NCBI GenBank assembly: GCA_048939245.1
Contig: JBHLPR010000042.1
Span: 1 to 18,418, forward strand
Source of the DNA: Promethearchaeota archaeon
GTDB lineage: Archaea; Asgardarchaeota; Hermodarchaeia; Hermodarchaeales; Hermodarchaeaceae
DNA length: 18,418 nt
Direction: 5' to 3'
Under the pieces are notes generated by a model. It had not been told where the DNA came from and ran no database searches. It saw only the letters and a list, made by a program, of their open reading frames with translations. The position numbers were made by a program, and so were the translations under genes. Shown here piece by piece: positions 587 through 18,418 of the stretch. The stretch's first letter is position 1, and each line of letters starts with the position of its first letter.

Positions 587-1081
587 ATGGAAATCAGTAA
601 AGAACTTCAAGAAGCAATCAATGATCAAATTAATTTCGAACTCTATTCTGCTTACATCTATCTTTCGATGGCTACCTATTTCGAATCAGTCAACCTCAGT
701 GGCATGTCCCACTGGATGAAACACCAAGCTGTTGAAGAATACGAACACGCTATGCGATTTTGGAAGCACATCTCCGATCGAGGAGGCCGCGTAATTCTGA
801 CTGAGATAAAGGGTCCTGCTACTGAATGGGACTCGCCCTTGGCTGCATGGGAAAATGCCTATGAACACGAACAAATCGTTACCAAGCGCATTTTCGAAAT
901 CGGCAAAATTGCTGAAAAAATGGGAGATAAGTCCGCTGTCCCCATGCTCAACTGGTTCTACGAAGAGCAAGTTGAAGAAGAGGAACAAACACAAAATATT
1001 GCTGAAATGTTGAAGGAGATTGGAGATTCAAAAGGAGCATTATTTATGCTCGATAACAAACTTGGTCAACGCGGCACATAG
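587..1081 (+). CDS. ftnA: Non-heme ferritin (FtnA type)
   Basis: QINFELYSAYIYLSMA, EEYEHAMR, AYEHEQIVT and WFYEEQVEEE ferroxidase-centre motifs; 164 aa. Confidence 0.95.
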   Translation: MEISKELQEAINDQINFELYSAYIYLSMATYFESVNLSGMSHWMKHQAVEEYEHAMRFWKHISDRGGRVILTEIKGPATEWDSPLAAWENAYEHEQIVTKRIFEIGKIAEKMGDKSAVPMLNWFYEEQVEEEEQTQNIAEMLKEIGDSKGALFMLDNKLGQRGT

Positions 1082-1120
1082 AATTTGTAGAATACCATTC
1101 TAAGGGAAAACCCTTACTCC

Positions 1121-1163
1121 GCAGAAGGTGGCAGAGTCCTTCCTTCTGCTTTCTTTTTTCTTT
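1121..1163 (+). terminator. Hairpin plus U-rich tract after ferritin
   Basis: GCAGAAGG (1121-1128) pairs with CCTTCTGC (1142-1149), followed by TTTCTTTTTTCTTT. Confidence 0.65.
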
Positions 1164-1257
1164 AAAAAATTCGCGAGCTAGATATCTTACGCGATACAAA
1201 TTTTAGGAAGTTTATGAAAACTAATATTGGTTTTCACAATTGGAAGGCTGAAATTGA

Positions 1258-1386
1258 ATGGCTCAAGTTCAAGCTGTAGGCGAGAGATATCGATGTGATG
1301 TATGTGGGAACGAAATTGAAGTCACTTCTGCAGGTGGCGGCGAACTTCGTTGTTGTGCTCGACCAATGAGGCGAATAGGAAGATAG
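1258..1386 (+). CDS. Desulforedoxin-like / desulfoferrodoxin FeS4 iron-binding domain protein (42 aa, stand-alone)
   Basis: Below the ORF-track cutoff. Translation MAQVQAVGERYRCDVCGNEIEVTSAGGGELRCCARPMRRIGR carries the YxCxxCGN...GGG.LxCCxxPM signature. Confidence 0.9.
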   Translation: MAQVQAVGERYRCDVCGNEIEVTSAGGGELRCCARPMRRIGR

Positions 1387-1458
1387 TAGGCATTATAAGT
1401 AGTTCCAACTAAATGAGCAGCACTGAAATCCCGTGAATCATTAATGGGAGGTATAATT

Positions 1459-1959
1459 ATGGGAACTAAAGGTCGAGAAATCGTCCAATATGATCTCAAA
1501 GAACTTGTTGAATTACTAAACAAAGCGTTAGCAGATGAATGGTTAGCTTATGTTCAATATTGGAACGGGGCAAAATTAGCAGTTGGACCTATGCGTGATT
1601 TAGTTGCGAGTGAACTCAAGGAGCACGCTAACGAAGAACTTGAACACGCTGGTATGCTCGTCGAACGAATCATCCAACTGGGTGGAACTCCAATTCTTAC
1701 ACCATCCGAATGGTTATCAAAAACCAATTGTGGATACGAAGCCCCTACTGATCCTTTCGTTGTCACCCTACTAGAACAAAATATCAAAGGCGAACAGTGT
1801 GCCATTGAGACCTACACCAAAATCCTTGATAAAATCAAAGGCAAAGATCCGTTAACCACCCACATCGTCTATAAAATCCTTGATGATGAAGTGGAACATG
1901 AAGAAGATCTCGAAGCAATCATGGACGACATTAAAGCAGCAAAGAAATTCTTCAAATAA
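1459..1959 (+). CDS. DPS-like (DPSL, thioferritin) ferritin-superfamily protein
   Basis: LNKALADEWLAYVQYW, EELEHA..LVERIIQLGGTP, the Cys pair CGYEAP...EQCAI, and DEVEHEEDL. Start placed at ATG 1459 behind a GGAGGT ribosome-binding site (the ORF track starts at 1444). Confidence 0.9.
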   Translation: MGTKGREIVQYDLKELVELLNKALADEWLAYVQYWNGAKLAVGPMRDLVASELKEHANEELEHAGMLVERIIQLGGTPILTPSEWLSKTNCGYEAPTDPFVVTLLEQNIKGEQCAIETYTKILDKIKGKDPLTTHIVYKILDDEVEHEEDLEAIMDDIKAAKKFFK

Positions 1960-1985
1960 ATTAAGCATCATTAACTTCAACTATT

Positions 1986-2020
1986 TGCGGACCAGTGGAA
2001 TTTGATTGGACTGGTTCGCA
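1986..2020. terminator. 11-bp hairpin between the convergent DPSL and EamA genes
   Basis: TGCGGACCAGT (1986-1996) pairs with ACTGGTTCGCA (2010-2020), with one G-U pair; T-rich sequence follows. Confidence 0.6.
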
Positions 2021-2031
2021 GATATCTTCTT

Positions 2032-2958
2032 TTAAAATAATAACACCGCTAGCCACACACCACTAATTGTAAGGATTGTTCCAAGTAAAATTAATGGTGT
2101 GACTTTTTCTTTTAGATAAATCACAGTGAAGGGAAGTGCGAAGAGAGGTGCTGTTGCAGCAATTACGGATGTGACGGTTGCTCCGGTGAAAAAGACAGCG
2201 TTGACATATAAGACTGAACCAATACCCATTCCGAAAAACCCAGCGACTAATACGAGTTTGGTTGCACGTCGTGTGGGCATGGGCATACCCCGTTTCCGAG
2301 CGAAAAGGAAGATTGGTAGAAGGAATAGCGATCCGATTGAGATTCGGATAAGGTTCGCATCGATGGGATCACTACCAATTAATCCAATTTGGAGAATCAC
2401 GGTTGCGGAAGCCCAGCTAAAAGCGGCGCCTATGGCAAGTATAATTCCGAGTTTATCCCAGCCAACCCGTGTTTGCTTATTATATGGCGGTACGTCCTCT
2501 ATTTCTTGTCGTGCTTGTTCGTGGGTGATGATGCTGATTCCAAGTATGGCCAAGATGACTCCTAGAAGACGATGTAGAAGAAATGGCTCCTGTATAATCA
2601 CTATTGAGATTAAATACGTGATGACAGGAAACGTCATTGCTATGGGAAAAGCACGGGAAACGCCAATGCGGGATTGGCTTGTTAGGTAGAGGAGGTCTCC
2701 AATGCCAGCACCCAAGATAATTGAGGTAGCTAAAAAGGGAATAGAGACCAGAGAAACGTTGAGTCCGGTGGGAAAAAGAAAAAGAAGTACTACAATGGCA
2801 ATCACAGGTAGGGCAATCCACATTTTGTAGGCATTAATGGCAATAGGTTGGATTTCCATACTTTGCGATTTGTACACAACATTCGAAAAGCCGAACAGTG
2901 CCGCACCCAGAATCCCCATAAACACACCTGCAAGAAATAGTTCGGGGGAGACTGCCAC
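2032..2958 (-). CDS. DMT/EamA-family transporter (about 10 TM, two EamA repeats)
   Basis: Hydrophobic duplicated halves: GAGIGDLLYL..SRIGVSRAFPI and GMGIGSVLYVNAV..TGAT..ATAPLFAL..LKEKVT. GTG start with AGGTGA RBS. Confidence 0.9.
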   Translation of the reverse strand: MAVSPELFLAGVFMGILGAALFGFSNVVYKSQSMEIQPIAINAYKMWIALPVIAIVVLLFLFPTGLNVSLVSIPFLATSIILGAGIGDLLYLTSQSRIGVSRAFPIAMTFPVITYLISIVIIQEPFLLHRLLGVILAILGISIITHEQARQEIEDVPPYNKQTRVGWDKLGIILAIGAAFSWASATVILQIGLIGSDPIDANLIRISIGSLFLLPIFLFARKRGMPMPTRRATKLVLVAGFFGMGIGSVLYVNAVFFTGATVTSVIAATAPLFALPFTVIYLKEKVTPLILLGTILTISGVWLAVLLF

Positions 2959-3101
2959 GGTAAATCACCTATTGCCTTGTTATTGAATGCGCGTAAATCG
3001 TCCGATGTGGGGTTTTAGTCTAAAAAGGTTGCAGAGAGGTAAGTTTTTTGAAGATGTTATTAACAAGGGGGGGTAAACTCTGGATGTGGAGGTTACATTC
3101 G

Positions 3102-3662
3102 ATGTACCCTATTGATATTCTCCTTGATGAACACAAATTGGTTGATAGAGTATTTGCAATTATTGAGAAGGTCCGTGATAAGCTAAAGGATAAAGAAGAA
3201 ATTCCAGCGCCCGTTTTTTGGAAGTTGGTCGAGTTCATTCGTGGTTATGCTGATGTTATTCATCACTCGAAAGAGGAAGACATCCTCTTTGATACTTTGC
3301 GTGAACATGATACTGATTTACCGAAAGAAGTCGACCGAAATATCGCTGTGCTCATCGAAGAGCATATTGAGGCTTTAGATCTGGCCAATGAGATGCACAA
3401 AGCCATTCGAGAGTATCATCGAGGTGCACCTGAAGCGCGTGATAAAATTCTCAAGTCGGTTGACGAGTATCTCAAAATCATGAAACCACATTTCAAAATG
3501 GAAGAAGATGATGTATTTCCTTCTATAGTGAACGTGCTTAGCCAAGAAGAGAAAGATAAAATGAAAGCCGATTTTGACCGTTTCGACGAAATTCTTGGTG
3601 GTAAAGAGGTCCATGGAAGGTACCATCAAATTGTTGAAGACCTTGAACAGCAATTCATGTAA
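3102..3662 (+). CDS. Hemerythrin HHE cation-binding domain protein
   Basis: LLDEH, HHSKEEDILF, LIEEH and PHFKMEEDDVFP motifs. ATG 3102 follows a GGAGGT RBS (the ORF track starts at 3048). Confidence 0.9.
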   Translation: MYPIDILLDEHKLVDRVFAIIEKVRDKLKDKEEIPAPVFWKLVEFIRGYADVIHHSKEEDILFDTLREHDTDLPKEVDRNIAVLIEEHIEALDLANEMHKAIREYHRGAPEARDKILKSVDEYLKIMKPHFKMEEDDVFPSIVNVLSQEEKDKMKADFDRFDEILGGKEVHGRYHQIVEDLEQQFM

Positions 3663-4539: not shown

Positions 4540-5307
4540 ATGTTCAACCCATTTCGCAAACAATGGCAGTCCAATGCCGAAGCATTCACTCAACTAATCA
4601 ATGGGAAAGGTACACCCCATCATCAGCAGATACTTAATCCCTGTATTGAACAACTAATGGGAAATGTCGAAGGTCGTCGCATCTTAGATGCAGGTTGTGG
4701 AGAAGGTTACCTTTCCCGATATTATGCACAAAAAGGCGCAGAGGTAACTGCTGTAGATTTTTCACCAGAGCTTATTGAAATAGGAGAAAGGACCTCGAAA
4801 GATTTACCCATTACCTTCCTGATTGGCGACCTCTGCTCGCTAGAAACCCTTCACGACGAAGAGTTCGACATTATTTTATCTAATCTGGTTCTCCTCAATC
4901 TTGATTGCCTAGAAAAAAGTTTACATGAATTCCATCGGTTACTTCGCCCCAAAGGGTTTGTAGTGTTTTCAATCGTTCATCCAGCATTCAATATGTATGG
5001 ACCAGGACATTGGGAATTGGGTAAAAAGGAAAGCCAGTCTAGACGCCGGAAAGGTAAGTTCTTTGTGATGGATCAATACTTTGCAGAGAAAGAGTATCGG
5101 TTTCGATGGAAAACCCGATCAGGCGAAGGATTTCCCGAAGAGTTTAGCTTTTTTCACCGAACCATCGCAACCTACATCAAAACACTTCTACGGATTGGGT
5201 TTCGTTTAACCGCATTTGAAGAACCACGCCCCATAACCAATGCACCATTCTTTGAGCGTGAACGACGAATTCCCTTCTTCCTCGTAATACGGGCAGAGAA
5301 AGACTAG
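4540..5307 (+). CDS. Class I SAM-dependent methyltransferase
   Basis: ILDAGCGEG motif I, AVDFS, FDIILSNLVL and LLRPKGFVVFSIVHP. Confidence 0.92.
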   Translation: MFNPFRKQWQSNAEAFTQLINGKGTPHHQQILNPCIEQLMGNVEGRRILDAGCGEGYLSRYYAQKGAEVTAVDFSPELIEIGERTSKDLPITFLIGDLCSLETLHDEEFDIILSNLVLLNLDCLEKSLHEFHRLLRPKGFVVFSIVHPAFNMYGPGHWELGKKESQSRRRKGKFFVMDQYFAEKEYRFRWKTRSGEGFPEEFSFFHRTIATYIKTLLRIGFRLTAFEEPRPITNAPFFERERRIPFFLVIRAEKD

Positions 5308-10112: not shown

Positions 10113-10583
10113 TTATTTTGTTCCGCGAACCAATGTAATCTCCATTGCTGAGACGTTCGCGACGTTGCCTTCGGCGGTTTTGACCTGCTCTGTCGAGATG
10201 TCGATATTGTTCACAACGAGATCAGGCATGAATCGGTTTCGTAGCACCTCAGCAACGTCTACGGCGCGGCTGATGGCTCGTCCCCGGGCCTTGATCACGA
10301 GTTCATCGGGGTTTCGGTTGAGTTGCGTAACACAGGCAGTGATATAGCTCATTAACGGTTTACTGCCAACAAAGACGACGCTTTCGTCGCGTCGTGACTT
10401 GGGGGCTTCCGCTTTAGCTTCTGCCTTAGCTTCTGCCTTAGCTTCAGCTTTGGGTTTAGGTTCTTTTTTCTTCGGAGCCTTGGCTTTTGGTTCTTCAGCC
10501 TTGGGCTCTTCCGCTTTAGCTTCTTCAGGTTTTGGAGTCTCAGCAGATTCTGTTTCTTTAGACATTTTGGGAGTTTCCTCCAT
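10113..10583 (-). CDS. albA: DNA/RNA-binding protein Alba with a long low-complexity N-terminal extension
   Basis: [27 protein letters not shown] and NVSAMEITL Alba signature, preceded by about 62 aa rich in K/E/A/P. Confidence 0.95.
10405..10452. repeat. Four imperfect 12-bp tandem repeats encoding (KAEA)4 in the Alba tail
   Basis: GCTTCCGCTTTA GCTTCTGCCTTA GCTTCTGCCTTA GCTTCAGCTTTG. Confidence 0.85.
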
Positions 10584-11933: not shown

Positions 11934-12329
11934 GTGGCTGATATGTCTAAAGATGCCGATGAGCTCAAACGTATCCGAGAACGCAAGATGCAAGCGTTGA
12001 TTAAAGAGCAAGAGCGTCGTGCAGCTATCAAGGATGAAGTTGAAGAACGAGAAAAGGAGCGGGAACAGATAATCGATGTTCTCTTTTTACCAGATGCGGT
12101 TGCATACCTCAAGGAATTGAAAAAAACTAAGCCAACAATAGCTCATCGGATAGAAGATTTAGCGATTGCTCTTTACTTGCGAAAACAGCTTGTTAATCGA
12201 ATTCCTAAAAGCGGTGTAATTCTAGTCCAACGCAAAATAGAAGGTGTCGAACCTAAGATTACTGTAAAACGCCGAGGCGAAGATGAAGTTAGTTTCTATG
12301 AAGCCGTTAAGAAAGATTTGGCAAAATAA
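11934..12329 (+). CDS. PDCD5/TFAR19-like (dsDNA_bind) DNA-binding protein, divergent
   Basis: DELKRIRERKMQAL N-terminus, K-P-x-x-A..IE helix, and KITVKRR C-terminal motif. TATAAAA at about 11894-11900. The start may be ATG 11943. Confidence 0.8.
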   Translation: MADMSKDADELKRIRERKMQALIKEQERRAAIKDEVEEREKEREQIIDVLFLPDAVAYLKELKKTKPTIAHRIEDLAIALYLRKQLVNRIPKSGVILVQRKIEGVEPKITVKRRGEDEVSFYEAVKKDLAK

Positions 12330-12402: not shown

Positions 12403-12888
12403 CTAATATGCCGCGGCGTGAGTTTCTCCAGTTAAGGTCTCTTTTAAAATCTGACCTCGCCTATTTTGGAGTGAGACTCTTACCACACTAACAGCATTAG
12501 CTCCCCATACCGTTCGTTTAACATCTCTTTCCAGCATTTTAACTGCGGAATCATTGCTTAGTTCCTGGAATGCCCCAGGCCCTAGGTGAAGCAAAAGATG
12601 AAGGATTGTTCCCGCTTCTTGAAATAGAGGATCAGGAGTTATGTCTAAATCCGCCTCTTCAGCTGTTATTGTCATCGGCAGGGGTTTCCAATTGAAATAT
12701 CGTTTACGAGCTTCCTTGCGAATATCCACTAATCCTGCACAACATAGCACTTCGATTACATCATAGAGTCGTCGTTTTTCTTGGAGTGGCAAGCCTAAGT
12801 GCATAAGAAGTGTATTAGCAGTGTATTCTTGATCGGGATGTTCCTGTAAAAAGGCAATAACGTGTCTGGCAACCTCGCCTAACTTCAT
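12403..12888 (-). CDS. E2F/DP-like winged-helix DNA-binding domain protein with an unknown C-terminal domain
   Basis: Residues 1-70 contain KRRLYDVIEVLCCAGLV...KRYFNW, matching the E2F/DP consensus RR(I/L)YDxxNVLxxxGL(I/V)...W. GAGG RBS upstream. Confidence 0.8.
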   Translation of the reverse strand: MKLGEVARHVIAFLQEHPDQEYTANTLLMHLGLPLQEKRRLYDVIEVLCCAGLVDIRKEARKRYFNWKPLPMTITAEEADLDITPDPLFQEAGTILHLLLHLGPGAFQELSNDSAVKMLERDVKRTVWGANAVSVVRVSLQNRRGQILKETLTGETHAAAY

Positions 12889-13004: not shown

Positions 13005-13196
13005 AGTGTATCTTTACCCTTTCCATTTCTTGTTAAAAAGAGCTGGTATTACGCATTGACATTCCTAAAATATTCTTAGAACAGTTATTTAGAAAGACGC
13101 ACCCAGCTCTGATACAATAGTATTGATGAGTCAGTAAAAGGAGAGAGCTTATATCAGTTGTTTCATGCTAGTAGAGTTGGGGCAAGGCTGGTCGGA

Positions 13197-14450
13197 ATGC
13201 GGAAGAGTCGCCTAGGAATTATTCTCGTCGTCCTCTTACTACTTTTGATTGGAGCGACATTGCCTCCCCGCGTTTCGGCTTTTAATTATGTTCACTACTG
13301 GAGAATTAACTTCGCTGGATCTATTGAGGTCACCGGAAATGAATCAATGCCAATAACACCATATTGGAATTACATCGGTAACACGAGCTGGCAGACCTGT
13401 GAGCTGCTTTCCTTTGAAATGACCCTGAATGACACCCCGATAGTGATTACAGGGATGGGTGTTGACATCGATGGAAATCCTCGCTTAACACTTAATTTGT
13501 CTTCAGGGTTACAACCCGAAGAGGTTCTGAGATGGGATGAAGAATGGTTATTCACCGTTGCGAATCGCCGTCCCGCCCTTCCACCCATTAGCGAACTCCG
13601 TTCAGGTCGGGTCGATGAGATTGAAAACCTAATGGATGTCGATGAGTTACTCAGATATACTCAGGCAACGACATTATGGAAAAGGTGGAATAGCAATCTT
13701 ACTGAAATTGCAGAGCTTATACGTGATGGACTAGCGGAAGACCAACAAGATAATGTTCTAAGCCTATTATTTGCCAGTATTCAGTGGATTCAAAACACCA
13801 TTATTCGTTCAGGTGGTGTAACAGAGCCCCAATATCCTGAAGAAACCATTATGAGCCAAATTGGAGATTGTGATGACCAATCCAATCTTCTAATTGTGCT
13901 CCTCCGAATTTTTAATATCCCATGTTACTTAACAACGGGCCATTGGTTTCAAGATGGTGCCCGAACGAGCGGATTCCTCTGGGGTTCTATAAGTGAAAAC
14001 GCCTACCGTTATGTTGATTACCAAAACTCTGTGGGACATGGTTGGGCTATGGTATTTGTTCCACCCTGGGGCTGGTTACCTTTTGATTTGTTTGCATTAG
14101 AGCCGGGATCAGATCCTGAGGAAGCATATACGAATTCGCTTTTCGCTTCAAGCCTACCATTTGCGAGCCTCTGGCAAATTATTACCAGCGACTATATCGC
14201 TAAACGACGAACAGAACAGGCGAGCTTGTTTACGTATCAGGTTCATCGTATAGAAATTGAAGAATGGACCTCACTTGGTTCAGTTCCAATTATTGATGCC
14301 GAATACTTGTTGACGAATGTAGCAACACTAATTGTTCTTATTATCACTCTGGGCTTTTTGACATTTCTTGTGGGAGTAGCTATTCGAAAACAGCCACAGG
14401 AGGAGCTAAAACATGACTCCACGACTCGCACCCAGTACACTTTACACTGA
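13197..14450 (+). CDS. Transglutaminase-like (Transglut_core) protein, exported and C-terminally membrane-anchored
   Basis: Cys-His-Asp triad motifs GDCDDQSNL, GHGWAMVF and GWLPFD. Signal peptide after MRKSR (ATG 13197; the ORF track starts at 13158) and a C-terminal TM helix. Overlaps bshC by 38 nt. Confidence 0.85.
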   Translation: MRKSRLGIILVVLLLLLIGATLPPRVSAFNYVHYWRINFAGSIEVTGNESMPITPYWNYIGNTSWQTCELLSFEMTLNDTPIVITGMGVDIDGNPRLTLNLSSGLQPEEVLRWDEEWLFTVANRRPALPPISELRSGRVDEIENLMDVDELLRYTQATTLWKRWNSNLTEIAELIRDGLAEDQQDNVLSLLFASIQWIQNTIIRSGGVTEPQYPEETIMSQIGDCDDQSNLLIVLLRIFNIPCYLTTGHWFQDGARTSGFLWGSISENAYRYVDYQNSVGHGWAMVFVPPWGWLPFDLFALEPGSDPEEAYTNSLFASSLPFASLWQIITSDYIAKRRTEQASLFTYQVHRIEIEEWTSLGSVPIIDAEYLLTNVATLIVLIITLGFLTFLVGVAIRKQPQEELKHDSTTRTQYTLH

Positions 14451-16182
14451 ATACATATTCGATGACAATGAAGCCGCCCTACAATTCTGGGGACCAATTC
14501 CAAAGAACATCAAAGAAGCAATCAATCTAAGCACATCATTGATAGACGCATACCACAAAACACAACCAGTTTTCACTCAAGAACGCTTTCATGACCTCAT
14601 TAAAAGCCTCGAAGCAATCCATAAAAAATTCGACATGTTCTCACCACAGGTGAAAGAGAACCTTGCTAATCTCCAACAACAAGGCGCAGTAATTGAAGCA
14701 GGACATCAACCCGCCCTGTTAGGTGGACCCGGCTTCGTGATAAACAAAATCGCAGCAATAACCAAAATCGCATTAATACAACAAACAACCCCCCTCATGT
14801 TTGTTGGTGATCACGACCATGAGCAGAAAGAATTGACCGTCATTCACCTTCCCAGTCCTGGACCACGGGGATTAACCTTTTCCTTACCTATCTCCCGCGA
14901 ATTCAGGATGTCTCCTATGCACGTGCTTCCTCTGCCTCCCAAAAAATGGCTAAAAAACGTGGTTGATAAAATCACAGCAACATATCATGAATTAGTAATT
15001 GGGTCCGCTAAACAAAATATAGAAGATTATGAACAACGCCTGAAAATTTTACGCACACTTCTTGAAACAACCTATAACAGAGCAAATAGTATTGCCGAAT
15101 GGACAATCAGACTTTGGCATCAAATTACCAATATCACTCAGGATAGTGGTGTACTCTTCCAGAGCTTCTCCTACCCAGCGATTCGCGAACTCATGTTGCC
15201 TGCATTTGAATATCTACTCAGAGATACAAATCGACAAAATCTCATTAAAGCTTTGAATACTAGCGCGGAAAAACTCGAACAACTCGGATACGAACCAGGC
15301 ATTGGAAAAAGAGCTGAGAATTATGTGCCATTCCATCTTGAATGCCCAACCACCGAGTGTAATCGAACCCGCTTGGACCCCACAATTACCTCAAACCCAT
15401 CAGAGCCACACATCACCATCTCTGCCCAGTGTCCCAAATGTAAGGTCACACACACCATTGAGGTAAAAACAACAGCTCCGGACCTAGCTGACTGGAAGAC
15501 CTATCTTTCCCCCCGCGTCGATACACGTGCATTTCTTGTGCAAAGTTACACACCAGTCATTCTTCATGTTGGAGGAGCAGGGGAAACCAGCTATCATGCC
15601 CAAGTAATACCAGCCCTTCAGGCAACTAACAGTGTAGCTCCAATTTTCTATCGCTATACCCGAATATACTATGAAAACCCCTGGTCGAAAAGTCTCGCTC
15701 AAAAACTTGCACGTGAAAAGTTAATGCCTTTGAATCACGAGGAACTGCTATGCTTTGAAGCAGCGATTAATACAGGATATGCTGAGGAAAATACTGGAGT
15801 TGTGCAATCACTTTTCGCTGCCAGTCAAGAACATATCACTGATACCATCGAACGGTTGATTGAAGCGGAATCTCAACTGGAAAAAGAACGAAACGAATCC
15901 ATCAACCACCAACGTGAAATCACGGATTTGACACTAACGAAGGAAAACCAAGCGAAGATAGGACGCCTTACACGCCGTCGCCAAATACTACAAACCTATC
16001 TATCTCAAATGTTTGGTCGCTATTCCGTCGAACGTCTTGGACAGGAAGTAAGCTATCTTTGGCTTGATGCCGCCATATCAATACACCCAAACCATCACTT
16101 CAGCCGGCTTCTCGCGCATTATCAAAAATATACTCCGTCATCAGCCACATTTTATTTGGTCAACCAGGGGATGCAGCAGTAG
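14413..16182 (+). CDS. bshC: Bacillithiol biosynthesis cysteine-adding enzyme BshC, divergent, with a Cys4 insertion
   Basis: IEAGHQPALLGGPGFVINK (cf. TGQQxGLxxGPLYxxxK), GDHDHEQKEL (cf. EDHDFxE), LSPRVDTR (cf. FSPNVxxR), HVGGAGETSYHAQ (cf. YVGGPGExxYxAQ), a C-terminal coiled coil, and location next to bshA. Confidence 0.8.
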   Translation: MTPRLAPSTLYTEYIFDDNEAALQFWGPIPKNIKEAINLSTSLIDAYHKTQPVFTQERFHDLIKSLEAIHKKFDMFSPQVKENLANLQQQGAVIEAGHQPALLGGPGFVINKIAAITKIALIQQTTPLMFVGDHDHEQKELTVIHLPSPGPRGLTFSLPISREFRMSPMHVLPLPPKKWLKNVVDKITATYHELVIGSAKQNIEDYEQRLKILRTLLETTYNRANSIAEWTIRLWHQITNITQDSGVLFQSFSYPAIRELMLPAFEYLLRDTNRQNLIKALNTSAEKLEQLGYEPGIGKRAENYVPFHLECPTTECNRTRLDPTITSNPSEPHITISAQCPKCKVTHTIEVKTTAPDLADWKTYLSPRVDTRAFLVQSYTPVILHVGGAGETSYHAQVIPALQATNSVAPIFYRYTRIYYENPWSKSLAQKLAREKLMPLNHEELLCFEAAINTGYAEENTGVVQSLFAASQEHITDTIERLIEAESQLEKERNESINHQREITDLTLTKENQAKIGRLTRRRQILQTYLSQMFGRYSVERLGQEVSYLWLDAAISIHPNHHFSRLLAHYQKYTPSSATFYLVNQGMQQ

Positions 16183-16235
16183 GACATGGTAAGACTATTT
16201 TTATTGGCCTGCTCCTCAAGTTTCAACGAATCATC

Positions 16236-16748
16236 ATGGAATTTCTTGATGTATTGAAAGGTCGACGTAGCATTCGACAATATCATTCTCACGAAGTCGA
16301 AAAAGAAAAAATCGACACTATCCTTGAAGCTGCTCAATGGGCACCATCAGCATCTAACAAGCAACCCTGGCACTTCATCGTTGTCCAAGATAACGCAAAT
16401 CGTAAACGTCTGGGGCAAATTCATTCGCACGGTCGATTCATGGAAGAAGCACCTGTTGTCATCGTAGTGCTGGGAAACCCCGAAGCACATCCGAAGTATT
16501 ATCTGTGTGATCCCCATCAGGCTGTTCAAAATATACTTCTTACAGCATACTGGTTAGGCTTGCGATCATGTTGGATGGGAGTTCGAGGAACGCCTTTCGA
16601 GAACGAGATAAAAGAGCTTCTAGAGGTTCCACATGGACTCACGGTTATATGCACCGTTTCAATTGGCTACTCTGATCAGAAACGAGAAAGCACACGCTAT
16701 CCATTAAGTGAACTAGTTTCATGGGAAAGATACGGGAAAACGGACTAG
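16236..16748 (+). CDS. Nitroreductase-family flavoprotein
   Basis: RRSIRQY, APSASNKQPWHFIVV and QNILLTAYWLGLRSCWMG. Confidence 0.93.
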   Translation: MEFLDVLKGRRSIRQYHSHEVEKEKIDTILEAAQWAPSASNKQPWHFIVVQDNANRKRLGQIHSHGRFMEEAPVVIVVLGNPEAHPKYYLCDPHQAVQNILLTAYWLGLRSCWMGVRGTPFENEIKELLEVPHGLTVICTVSIGYSDQKRESTRYPLSELVSWERYGKTD

Positions 16749-16758
16749 GAAACACCAG

Positions 16759-17865
16759 CTAGCCCTGAATTGCATATTCATAAATAGCTTCATACTGCGG
16801 TAGAATTTTGTCAACTGTATGATTATCAAGGATTGTTTGTCGGGCTGCCTGACCAAGGTCTGCTGCCAGTGTTGAGTCTGTGAGAATTACATAGAGCTTC
16901 TCGGCAAGAATATCAATATCCCCAAAAGGTGCTAGCAGTCCATTTTTTCCGTCTTTGACAATTTCTGGAATTCCACCAACTGCTGTAGCAACAACAGGAA
17001 GACCACAACTCATGGCCTCAAGTAGTGAAAGAGGAGCCCCTTCCAATTCAGAGCTCAATGCAAACGCACATGCACATCGAAGATATTGGTGGACATCGCG
17101 TTTGAACCCAGGACACCGAATCCGGTTATTAAGCTCGTACTTTCTAATAAGCCGATCAACCTCTGGGCGCGTTGGACCATCACCAATAAGGAGAAGGTCA
17201 ACATCTGGAACTTCATCAGCAATTTGCGCAAATGCTGTAACCAAGTCACAGACTCGTTTTACTGGACGGAAATTCGACACATGGATTAGGTGTCGTTTCT
17301 CGTTTTCCAACTCGTATTCACAGGTATTCGGTGCAAATAGGTCTGGATCCGTGAAGTTAGTGATTGGTTCAATGGAGCAGCGGACCCCAAGAGTTTGTTC
17401 AGCTGTTTCACATATATGCTTAGTAACACACGTAACAGCATTCGCCGCTTCAACGGCAAATCGTGTGGTTGGTTGGTAGGCGGGATCAGCTCCCAGGGTA
17501 TGCACATCACTTCCATGCAATGTAACAACGTATGGAACCCCAGTCAATTGCTGAGCAAGAAAGGCTGACACCGCATGAGGAATTGCATAATGCACATGTA
17601 AAAGATCTAGATGATGTTTCCGGACCACTTGAGCCATCCGTGAAGCAAGGGCCACTGTATAAGGTGGATAGCGAAAAAGTGGATATTCTAAGACATCCAC
17701 GAGATCAACTTTGACATTCTCATATCGACCTTCTTGTAGTTCAAAAGGGACTTCATAGGTGATGAACCGAACTTCATGACCACGTTTTGCGAGTTCAACA
17801 CCAAGTCGAGTACCGAGAAGCCCTGACCCTCCAACGCCTGGATAAATTGTGATACCTATTCGCAT
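16759..17865 (-). CDS. bshA: N-acetyl-alpha-D-glucosaminyl L-malate synthase BshA (GT4)
   Basis: GITIYPGVGGSG, YPLFRYPPY..ALAS, LDLLHVHYAIPHA, TLHGSDV and HVSNFRPVKRV, all characteristic of BshA. Confidence 0.92.
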   Translation of the reverse strand: MRIGITIYPGVGGSGLLGTRLGVELAKRGHEVRFITYEVPFELQEGRYENVKVDLVDVLEYPLFRYPPYTVALASRMAQVVRKHHLDLLHVHYAIPHAVSAFLAQQLTGVPYVVTLHGSDVHTLGADPAYQPTTRFAVEAANAVTCVTKHICETAEQTLGVRCSIEPITNFTDPDLFAPNTCEYELENEKRHLIHVSNFRPVKRVCDLVTAFAQIADEVPDVDLLLIGDGPTRPEVDRLIRKYELNNRIRCPGFKRDVHQYLRCACAFALSSELEGAPLSLLEAMSCGLPVVATAVGGIPEIVKDGKNGLLAPFGDIDILAEKLYVILTDSTLAADLGQAARQTILDNHTVDKILPQYEAIYEYAIQG

Positions 17866-17980
17866 TTTCTGTCTCTTGGCATGCTACCTTCCTTGCCCAT
17901 ATGTGTTATGATGTAGGGAAAACAGTGTGAAAGGGTAGCGTCAGCAAACCTTTTGGTTAGAAATGAAGGCATACTCTAGT

Positions 17981-18418
17981 ATGCCAAAATCATCACGGAA
18001 ACGGCTTTTAGTTATTAGCGCGCACCCTGATGATGAAACCTTTGGGTGTGGTGGAACCATTACTTTGGAAGCCACTCAGGGTGCTGAGGTGACCGTCTGT
18101 TGCCTGACGGGTACGCCGTCCCGGCATCGAGAGTTAAAATCGGCTTGCGAAGTTCTGGGAGCGAAAGTTATTGCGCTAAATGGGAAGGATTTGCATCTGA
18201 CTGTTTCGGAGGTAACAGATGCCCTCATCCCGATCATTCAAGAGGTTCAGCCGGAGGTACTCATCTCGCACGGGGCCGAAGATTATCATCCTGATCATCG
18301 CGTGGTTTATCAGGCGTTCCAACGAGCCGCAGAATGGGCAGGTCATTCGACACAATATCAGAAAAAAGCTTGGCGCCCTCAGCGACTCTTTAGCATGGAA
18401 ATTAATACCCTGCTTGCC
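17981..18418 (+). CDS. bshB: PIG-L/LmbE-family deacetylase, probable BshB; runs off the right edge (alternative ATG 17963)
   Basis: Not in the ORF track. Manual translation MPKSSRKRLLVISAHPDDETFGCGGTI...ACEVLGA...QPEVLISH..EDYHPDHRVV gives the AHPDDE and HPDH zinc motifs; divergent from bshA. Confidence 0.75.
   Translation, partial: MPKSSRKRLLVISAHPDDETFGCGGTITLEATQGAEVTVCCLTGTPSRHRELKSACEVLGAKVIALNGKDLHLTVSEVTDALIPIIQEVQPEVLISHGAEDYHPDHRVVYQAFQRAAEWAGHSTQYQKKAWRPQRLFSMEINTLLA

Follow-up and report, generated by a model that had tools for sequence, protein, structure and literature searches.

The stretch of DNA analysed here (the window) is the entire 18,418 bp contig C34 of a metagenome-assembled genome (MAG) from an uncultured Promethearchaeota archaeon of the Hermodarchaeota (assembly GCA_048939245.1). 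The MAG comprises 2.52 Mb in 122 contigs, and its completeness and contamination are estimated at 88% and 3.6%. Towards the end of the window, genes for the three enzyme types of bacillithiol synthesis, BshA, BshB and BshC, lie side by side. Bacillithiol, a protective thiol, is so far known from bacteria alone. The bacterial BshA-BshB1/B2-BshC pathway is that of Bacillus subtilis, B. anthracis, Staphylococcus aureus, Deinococcus and Thermus, and the N-methylated form of its product occurs in Chlorobi and Bacteroidota. The features of the cluster in the window are the following.

14413-16182, plus strand: BshC-like protein of 589 aa, putative cysteine-adding enzyme (PF10079, TIGR03998 and model fold).
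16236-16748, plus strand: nitroreductase-family flavoprotein of 170 aa (PF00881, 104.5 bits).
16759-17865, minus strand: BshA-type glycosyltransferase of family 4 (GT4), 368 aa, of an archaeal "ExxP" clade (TIGR03999).
17866-17962: spacer between the divergent bshA and bshB genes, with two boxes conserved among Hermodarchaeota.
17963-18418, plus strand: BshB-like zinc deacetylase of the PIG-L/LmbE family, N-terminal part of 152 aa, open at the end of the window (PF02585).

An earlier note, made from the sequence without database searches, had described a cluster of BshA, BshB-like and BshC-like genes in an archaeon. Its open reading frames (ORFs) were found where it had placed them, and profile searches recovered all three enzyme types; the nitroreductase gene between bshC and bshA was missing from its description. 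When checked with profile models as the note had proposed, BshA passed the equivalog cut-off and the BshC-like protein passed PF10079, whereas the equivalog cut-offs of TIGR03998 for BshC and of the BshB1 model were not reached.

The match of BshA to TIGR03999 amounts to 375.2 bits over profile positions 1-374 of 375 (374.8 bits in the search of the whole genome), above the cut-off of 273.7. The only other match to this model in the genome, on contig C120, reaches 108 bits and is well under the cut-off. BshA of B. anthracis (2JJM/3MBO) aligns over the full length with 302 bits, and end-to-end alignments were also obtained with the B. subtilis and Staphylococcus BshA structures. According to structural work on S. 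aureus BshA, as quoted in PMC10361700, mutation of H118, T120, K209, E280 or E288 abolishes activity. N171 and the ESFG motif (280-283), which is described there as highly conserved in BshA, form hydrogen bonds with N-acetylglucosamine (GlcNAc); within the motif, the acetyl group is contacted by S281, and sugar O3 and O4 by the main-chain NH of G283. Judged against these residues, and in an alignment with four bacterial BshA, the window protein keeps the equivalents of H118, N171, K209, E280 and E288, while the equivalent of T120 is Ser in every archaeal form (HGSD vs. HGTD).

The ESFG motif itself is replaced by EGAP. As seen in the alignment, this region of the EX7E motif reads EGAP in every Hermodarchaeota ortholog; the Thorarchaeota-type family (f6) has EGMP and Bathyarchaeota have ES[AS]P. 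ESFG is kept in Bacillus, Brevibacillus, S. aureus and Bernardetia (Bacteroidota), and also in the Asgard families f27, f4, f13 and f25. Additionally, the residue following the GGSG loop is Arg in the clade of Hermod-, Thor- and Bathyarchaeota and Glu in bacteria. On the bacterial side this comparison covers four sequences plus the entries of the PDB. The change is fixed throughout the clade and affects the donor-sugar pocket; purely by analogy, it raises the chance that the sugar, and hence the product, differs from that of bacillithiol. The closest sequences outside Hermodarchaeota are those of Bathyarchaeota (50-54% identity), followed by Thorarchaeota (41-45%) and bacteria (35-41%). The description of this BshA as close to the bacterial consensus needs correcting in view of its identity to bacterial BshA and of its donor-sugar motif, which differs.

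For the 589-aa protein, PF10079 (BshC N-terminal domain) gives 69.4 bits over residues 59-412, with a gathering score of 27. TIGR03998 is its sole NCBIfam match, at 81.4 bits compared with a cut-off of 265.8; on the same model the Thorarchaeota-type proteins (f6) score 65.5, those of Heimdallarchaeaceae (f4) 91.6 and the canonical Asgard f27 proteins 386.4 bits. An AlphaFold model built with a 60-sequence alignment reached a mean predicted local distance difference test (pLDDT) of 95.2 and a predicted template modelling score (pTM) of 0.94. When the model was compared with the PDB by Foldseek, BshC of B. subtilis (4WBD) ranked first (E 1.9e-20, template modelling scores 0.67/0.73, 15% identity), followed by the class I lysyl-tRNA synthetase 1IRX (E 3e-7) and further class I synthetases. 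Paired long helices at residues 442-534 form a C-terminal coiled coil as in the 4WBD fold. The assignment of this protein to the BshC type, as made in the earlier note, is therefore well founded in both profile and structure.

Twelve residues of the protein (Q99, G105, K112, D135, E140, F307, R320, G388, E391, Y394, Q544 and E545) are invariant over 62 sequences that include archaeal and canonical Asgard forms as well as BshC of Bacillus sp. and S. aureus. Because all of these family invariants are kept, the catalytic core looks intact. The strong divergence of BshC had been read previously as a pointer to a different group attached in the last step; with 12 of 12 invariant residues kept, divergence alone is no such pointer. 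The clearest hint of a changed product appears to sit instead in BshA, the enzyme that had been taken as canonical.

Inserted in the BshC-like protein are four cysteines, C311, C316, C340 and C343, in the pattern ECPxxxCNR ... KCPxC. From this pattern and the secondary structure of the model, the Cys4 insert would be zinc-ribbon-like and carried on short beta-hairpins. In the alignment, neither bacterial nor canonical Asgard BshC has this insert. An exhaustive HMMER search of 1.84 billion representative proteins returned 158 relatives at E <= 1e-3, 41 of them at E <= 1e-30, and a score gap separates the close relatives of the archaeal branch from BshC of canonical size at 35-54 bits. The Cys4 pattern occurs in about 60% of the close archaeal-branch representatives, compared with 2 of 68 canonical-size matches. 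All named members of the branch are archaeal (Bathyarchaeota, Ranarchaeia, Promethearchaeota, Harpocratesius and Heimdallarchaeum). Two metagenomic proteins of canonical size, P0300 (495 aa) and P0339 (524 aa), carry the pattern at the position of the archaeal insert; a quick BshC tree places them on a long branch of their own within the archaeal group, and they may be intermediate forms. A GGAGG stands 8 nt upstream of the ATG of the BshC-like gene, and no second PF10079 gene was found in a profile search of the contigs of this genome. In bacteria, bshC was originally found by its co-occurrence and adjacency with bshA (PMC5790435), and the two genes are 577 bp apart in the window.

The deacetylase gene scores 84.7 bits on PF02585 (PIG-L), with a gathering score of 28.2, and runs on from the window into contig C94 (bases 3-314), giving a joined protein of 230 aa. 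AHPDDE at residues 20-25 and HPDH at 109-112 of the joined protein correspond to AHPDD(E) and HxDH, which we take to be the metal-binding motifs of the PIG-L family. The likelier start of the ORF is the ATG at 17981, with orthologs aligning from residue 6-7 onward. The best NCBIfam match of the fragment is BshB1 (TIGR04001) with 66.2 bits; a full-length Hermodarchaeota ortholog (L023:9569-10249) reaches 106 bits of the required 182.5, and BshB of Asgard f27 236.6 bits. A second PIG-L deacetylase of 275 aa is encoded elsewhere in the genome (C70 70832-71554, minus strand; L001 1429-2256). Its BshB1 score of 123 bits is above that of the copy in the cluster and under the cut-off; a BshB2/Bca-like paralog and an unrelated sugar deacetylase are both conceivable.

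A pathway typical of bacteria in a MAG of 122 contigs with some estimated contamination might be explained by bacterial DNA that was misbinned or assembled chimerically into an archaeal genome. Three archaeal markers are located on the same contig as the bsh genes.

10113-10583, minus strand: Alba.
11934-12329, plus strand: PDCD5-like dsDNA-binding protein.
12403-12888, minus strand: E2F/DP-type winged-helix protein.

The nearest loci in the species-level genome collection belong to Candidatus Hermodarchaeota, Hermodarchaeum yapensis and Promethearchaeota. The window proteins were mapped onto 15 Hermodarchaeota loci, 14 of which reach past bshC. The shared order consists of an amidohydrolase, a PfkB kinase, Alba, an M28 peptidase, the PDCD5-like protein and the winged helix, followed by a transglutaminase-like gene, bshC, the nitroreductase gene where present, bshA, bshB and two genes of C94. 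In all 14 loci extending past bshC, bshA and bshB adjoin it, and in 10 loci Alba and the bsh genes are found on one contig. The loci with this order, from the amidohydrolase to beyond bshB, come from MAGs of several independent studies, and the nearest relatives of all three Bsh proteins are archaeal. For these reasons, contamination or chimerism was rejected as an explanation; its probability is practically negligible, and the archaeal host proposed in the earlier note stands. Neither of the sequence-based outcomes named there beforehand as speaking against the pathway, a bacterial or chimeric contig or a 589-aa protein lacking a BshC profile or structural match, was observed.

C34 closes with the same 77 bases with which C94 opens, and a similar overlap links the end of C94 to the start of C10. 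The contigs are thus ordered C104 - C34 - C94 - C10, with k-mer overlaps of about 77 bases, and the assembly breaks between them could be closed. The join of C34 to C94 is confirmed by the gene order of other Hermodarchaeota MAGs, which runs across it. Among Hermodarchaeota, identity is highest for BshA (72-87%), lower for the BshB-like protein (61-77%) and lowest for the BshC-like protein (55-70%). Because the gene order around the bsh genes is kept across the loci, the cluster is vertically inherited within Hermodarchaeota.

The distribution of the pathway in the phylum of the window, the Asgard archaea, was examined by PF10079 and BshA profile searches in an even sample of 301 genomes. PF10079 exceeded its gathering score in 142 of the 301 genomes and BshA its equivalog cut-off in 134, and the bshA-bshC pair was present in about 45% of the sample. 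By family, the numbers of genomes with each protein were as follows.

Family f1 (that of the window): BshC in 16 of 18, BshA in 15 of 18.
Family f4 (Heimdallarchaeaceae): BshC in 28 of 29, BshA in 28 of 29.
Family f6 (Thorarchaeota-type): BshC in 69 of 76, BshA in 69 of 76.
Family f13: BshC in 10 of 11, BshA in 11 of 11.
Family f25: BshC in 3 of 3, BshA in 3 of 3.
Family f27: BshC in 10 of 11, BshA in 10 of 11.
Family f9 (the largest remaining): BshC in 1 of 68, BshA in 0 of 68.

In nearly all cases, bshA and bshC are on the same contig and at most about 2 kb apart, and a BshB homolog adjoins the pair in f1, f6, f25 and f27. Three groups were obtained in a maximum-likelihood tree of BshA. Group 1 contains Hermodarchaeota, Thorarchaeota (f6) and Bathyarchaeota (support 100/99), Group 2 contains f27 and the four bacterial sequences (95/93), and Group 3 contains f4, f13 and f25. 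The same three groups appear in the quick tree of BshC, where a long branch divides the canonical forms (bacteria and f27) from the archaeal forms. The agreement of the two trees indicates that bshA and bshC have travelled as a unit, as is expected for a functional pair.

The f27 clusters (L038 and L039) share the adjacency of the genes, in a bshC-bshB-bshA row, and differ in that all three proteins are over the equivalog cut-offs, BshA groups with bacteria and keeps ESFG, and BshC is without the Cys4 insert. The f27 cluster looks like a separate and more recent acquisition from bacteria. As judged from the trees and alignments, Asgard archaea appear to hold at least one old archaeal version of the pathway in addition to one later import of the bacterial type. 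All three enzymes of the window fall in undescribed archaeal branches and represent an archaeal variant pathway not yet described.

By homology to the bacterial pathway, the cluster probably makes a bacillithiol-type thiol, most likely Cys-hexosamine-malate. In the first step, the BshA-type GT4 enzyme would move an N-acetylhexosamine from a uridine diphosphate (UDP) sugar onto L-malate. The divergently transcribed PIG-L zinc deacetylase would then free the 2-amino group, and the BshC-like enzyme, predicted to combine a class-I aminoacyl-tRNA-synthetase-like Rossmann core with a coiled-coil tail and the archaeal Cys4 insert, would attach cysteine to the freed amine to give a Cys-hexosamine-malate thiol. 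The identity and fold of the three proteins, their linkage, their vertical conservation in Hermodarchaeota and their place in one archaeal clade with Thor- and Bathyarchaeota are established here; each of the chemical steps we infer by homology to the bacterial enzymes. A thiol pathway is supported because BshA is over its equivalog cut-off with catalytic residues kept, because the BshC-like protein exceeds the gathering score of PF10079, keeps the twelve family invariants and has a model best matched by 4WBD, because the PIG-L protein keeps the metal motifs with BshB1 as its top family match, and because the order of the cluster is conserved and bshA and bshC co-occur in the same families. 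The DinB_2-family genes described below, as candidate thiol transferases, also count in its favor, as does the failure to find a GCS2-type gamma-glutamylcysteine ligase in the 88%-complete genome.

The mycothiol pathway of Actinobacteria, MshA-MshB-MshC, follows the same logic, with a GT4 enzyme, a PIG-L deacetylase and a cysteine ligase of class-I synthetase-like fold. The window proteins are nevertheless distinct from it: the MshA match is 60 bits and those to MshB and Mca are about 40 bits, far under the Bsh models. Moreover, MshC is a paralog of cysteinyl-tRNA synthetase and no PF10079 protein, and the window cluster has no MshD-type acetyltransferase. Like the bacterial bacillithiol system, the window has the three enzyme families in a cluster, an equivalog BshA, the 4WBD fold with its invariants and the PIG-L metal motifs. 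It departs from that system in its Asgard host, in EGAP for ESFG, in BshB-like and BshC-like scores far below the cut-offs and in the Cys4 insert.

Several observations weigh against a bacillithiol-type thiol as the product. Bacillithiol has never been detected in any archaeon (PMC7278568). The BshC-like protein (81 vs. 266 bits) and the full-length BshB-like ortholog fall below their equivalog cut-offs, and the sugar-contact motif of BshA is replaced. The label "cysteine-adding" rests on bacterial genetics, for nobody has yet reconstituted the reaction of any BshC in vitro, not even that of the bacterial enzymes, and the activated cysteine donor is unknown (PMC5790435). In contrast to systems of the Firmicutes type, neither Bdr/YpdA (TIGR04018; best match 73.6 bits vs. 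339.9 bits) nor BrxA/B (PF06491) and BrxC/YtxJ (TIGR04019; no match to either at E <= 0.001) was found in the 88%-complete genome; because of that completeness, these proteins are to be regarded as "not found" rather than "absent".

Alternatively, the cluster might make no thiol at all, and its product might be a hexosaminyl-malate or an aminoacyl-hexosamine, serving for example as a compatible solute or as a precursor of a glycoconjugate. The failure to find Bdr/YpdA and bacilliredoxins would agree with this, as would the facts that no in vitro experiment has yet shown which amino acid enzymes of the BshC family accept (PMC5790435) and that Hermodarchaeota are sediment anaerobes. However, anaerobic Chlorobi use a bacillithiol derivative (PMC12719100), the three genes co-occur side by side, as they do in the bacteria in which genetic evidence connects them with bacillithiol, and the BshC invariants are kept. 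Candidate thiol transferases of the DinB/MST-like type are also present: three DinB_2-family genes are above the cut-off in the genome, and one of the three, which matches PF04978 (mycothiol-S-transferase), lies about 3 kb beyond bshB.

C94 3343-3723, plus strand, continuing into C10 1-324: DinB-fold gene (PF04978).

The PF04978 score of this split gene, 30.2 bits, is above the gathering score of 27, and the gene was not seen at the corresponding place in the other Hermodarchaeota loci fetched. By their family membership, the DinB-fold proteins are candidate thiol S-transferases for the product of the cluster. Taken together, a product lacking a thiol is considered improbable. A methyltransferase gene at 4540-5307 was also considered as NmbA (N-methyl-bacillithiol synthase) and rejected, having only generic class-I methyltransferase matches and lying 10 kb away.

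If the product is a thiol of the Cys-aminosugar-acid type, its exact identity has to be considered. It may be authentic bacillithiol (L-Cys-D-GlcN-L-malate, GlcN being glucosamine), the differences in the enzymes reflecting neutral drift or adaptation to archaeal partners. This would accord with BshA being over the equivalog cut-off with H118, N171, K209, E280 and E288 kept and T120 conservatively changed to Ser, with the preserved invariants of the BshC family, and with the fully canonical set carried by Asgard f27 (BshA 405-423, BshB1 237 and BshC 386 bits). It is less easily reconciled with EGAP, which alters three of the four ESFG positions, including the acetyl-bonding Ser and the O3/O4-bonding Gly as given in PMC10361700, with the fixation of this change across the whole Hermod/Thor/Bathyarchaeota clade, or with BshB-like and BshC-like scores well under the cut-offs. 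Authentic bacillithiol is thus a serious candidate that we hold at somewhat less than an even chance.

The product may also be a variant of bacillithiol, in which the same architecture contains another hexosamine (e.g., galactosamine, the C4 epimer), another acid or a modification. PMC10361700 describes Neisseria W and Y capsule polymerases in which Pro or Gly at the position of G283 decides between UDP-Gal and UDP-Glc. The exchange of Gly for Pro in the archaeal clade affects the same EX7E position, the Ser and Phe contacts of BshA are lost, Arg takes the place of bacterial Glu after the GGSG loop, and the deacetylase and BshC-like enzymes have diverged together with BshA. On the other side, the analogy is drawn from a distant GT4 enzyme and no epimerase is encoded in the cluster. 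An ExxP motif may also occur in bacterial bacillithiol producers beyond the four BshA and PDB entries compared. Such a variant can be proposed only tentatively and is judged rather unlikely. The fixed change of ESFG to E(G/S)xP in BshA and the joint divergence of the deacetylase and BshC are also the grounds for a more specific and doubtful proposal, that Hermod-, Thor- and Bathyarchaeota share a pathway to an undescribed relative of bacillithiol such as cysteinyl-galactosamine (or other hexosamine) malate. Under this proposal, the zinc-ribbon BshC of the branch may also use an activated cysteine donor or partner other than that of the bacterial enzyme.

The presence of the pathway in an archaeon is not a novelty. 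For BshA and for BshC alike, a review in 2020 by Rawat and Maupin-Furlow counted 39 InterPro matches in archaea, most of them in Asgard archaea, and predicted bacillithiol in this group from these matches (PMC7278568). NCBI and JGI annotation already names the present proteins BshA and BshC, and relatives are annotated as "bacillithiol biosynthesis BshC" or "BshA" in MAGs of Promethearchaeota, Thorarchaeota, Odinarchaeota and Bathyarchaeota. The window cluster belongs to the Asgard and Bathyarchaeota homologs of that review, which gives InterPro counts only and does not treat the deacetylase, synteny, archaeal clades, Cys4 insert, EX7E change or Hermodarchaeota. In a BLAST survey of RefSeq in 2025, no archaeon with the full pathway was found (PMC12719100), which may be explained by the small number of MAGs in RefSeq. 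In the literature searched, no paper beyond PMC7278568 links bacillithiol with Asgard biology, and the paper describing Hermodarchaeota (PMC8163825) does not contain the word "bacillithiol". The core interpretation is therefore reasonable and not new; what is added here is the case of Hermodarchaeota, the motif change in BshA and the matching trees of BshA and BshC.

A complete and vertically conserved three-gene cluster in Hermodarchaeota makes the prediction of 2020 concrete and supplies defined genes. Where the archaeal clade departs from the bacterial enzymes, namely in the EX7E sugar motif of BshA and the Cys4 insert of BshC, the difference lends itself to testing by swapping. If well behaved, BshC variants from archaea might also be of use for the long-standing question of which reaction BshC catalyses. 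More broadly, the cluster bears on the buffering of redox stress in sediment archaea related to the eukaryotic ancestor, although this is a genomic inference whose core idea has already been published.

Other features of the locus are less closely tied to the pathway. Of the 14 Hermodarchaeota loci that span the interval, 8 have the nitroreductase gene between bshC and bshA and 6 lack it, and it was not found beside the bsh cluster in the other Asgard families sampled. Because it is present in some of these loci and absent from others, it is an optional passenger, a variable accessory member of the cluster. In the spacer between bshA and bshB, alignment of the window with 13 Hermodarchaeota loci revealed two boxes, CCCWTATGTGTT at 17896-17907 and AAACCTTTTGG at 17946-17956, the latter about 25-30 nt ahead of the conserved start at 17981; both are putative promoter elements. 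Scans of the window for Rfam families and tRNA genes gave no matches. Directly upstream of bshC lies one further gene.

13158-14450, plus strand: transglutaminase-core protein (PF01841, 37.7 bits) with a GDCDD catalytic-Cys motif.

The end of this gene overlaps the start of bshC by 38 nt, and its product has an N-terminal signal or transmembrane segment and a C-terminal transmembrane helix. It occupies this position in every Hermodarchaeota locus covering the region and in no other Asgard family. Considered as a partner of BshC, it was rejected because of its signal and transmembrane segments, which suggest a surface protein, and because it adjoins bshC only in Hermodarchaeota; the gene probably shares a transcript with bshC and codes for a surface protein that has no evident tie to thiol synthesis.

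Two further observations concern genes outside the cluster. At 587-1081 and 1444-1959 the window encodes ferritin/Dps-like proteins, the second of which also matches rubrerythrin, and at 3048-3662 a hemerythrin-domain protein. The region from 587 to 3662 is thus a run of genes of the iron and oxygen-stress type, on the same contig as the thiol cluster in a presumed anaerobe. Two genes past bshB, a bactofilin-domain protein of 409 aa is encoded on C94 (1514-2743, minus strand; PF04519, 49.7 bits), and the gene occupies this place in all Hermodarchaeota loci examined. A bacterial family of polymer-forming cytoskeletal proteins is thus stably placed in an Asgard genome.

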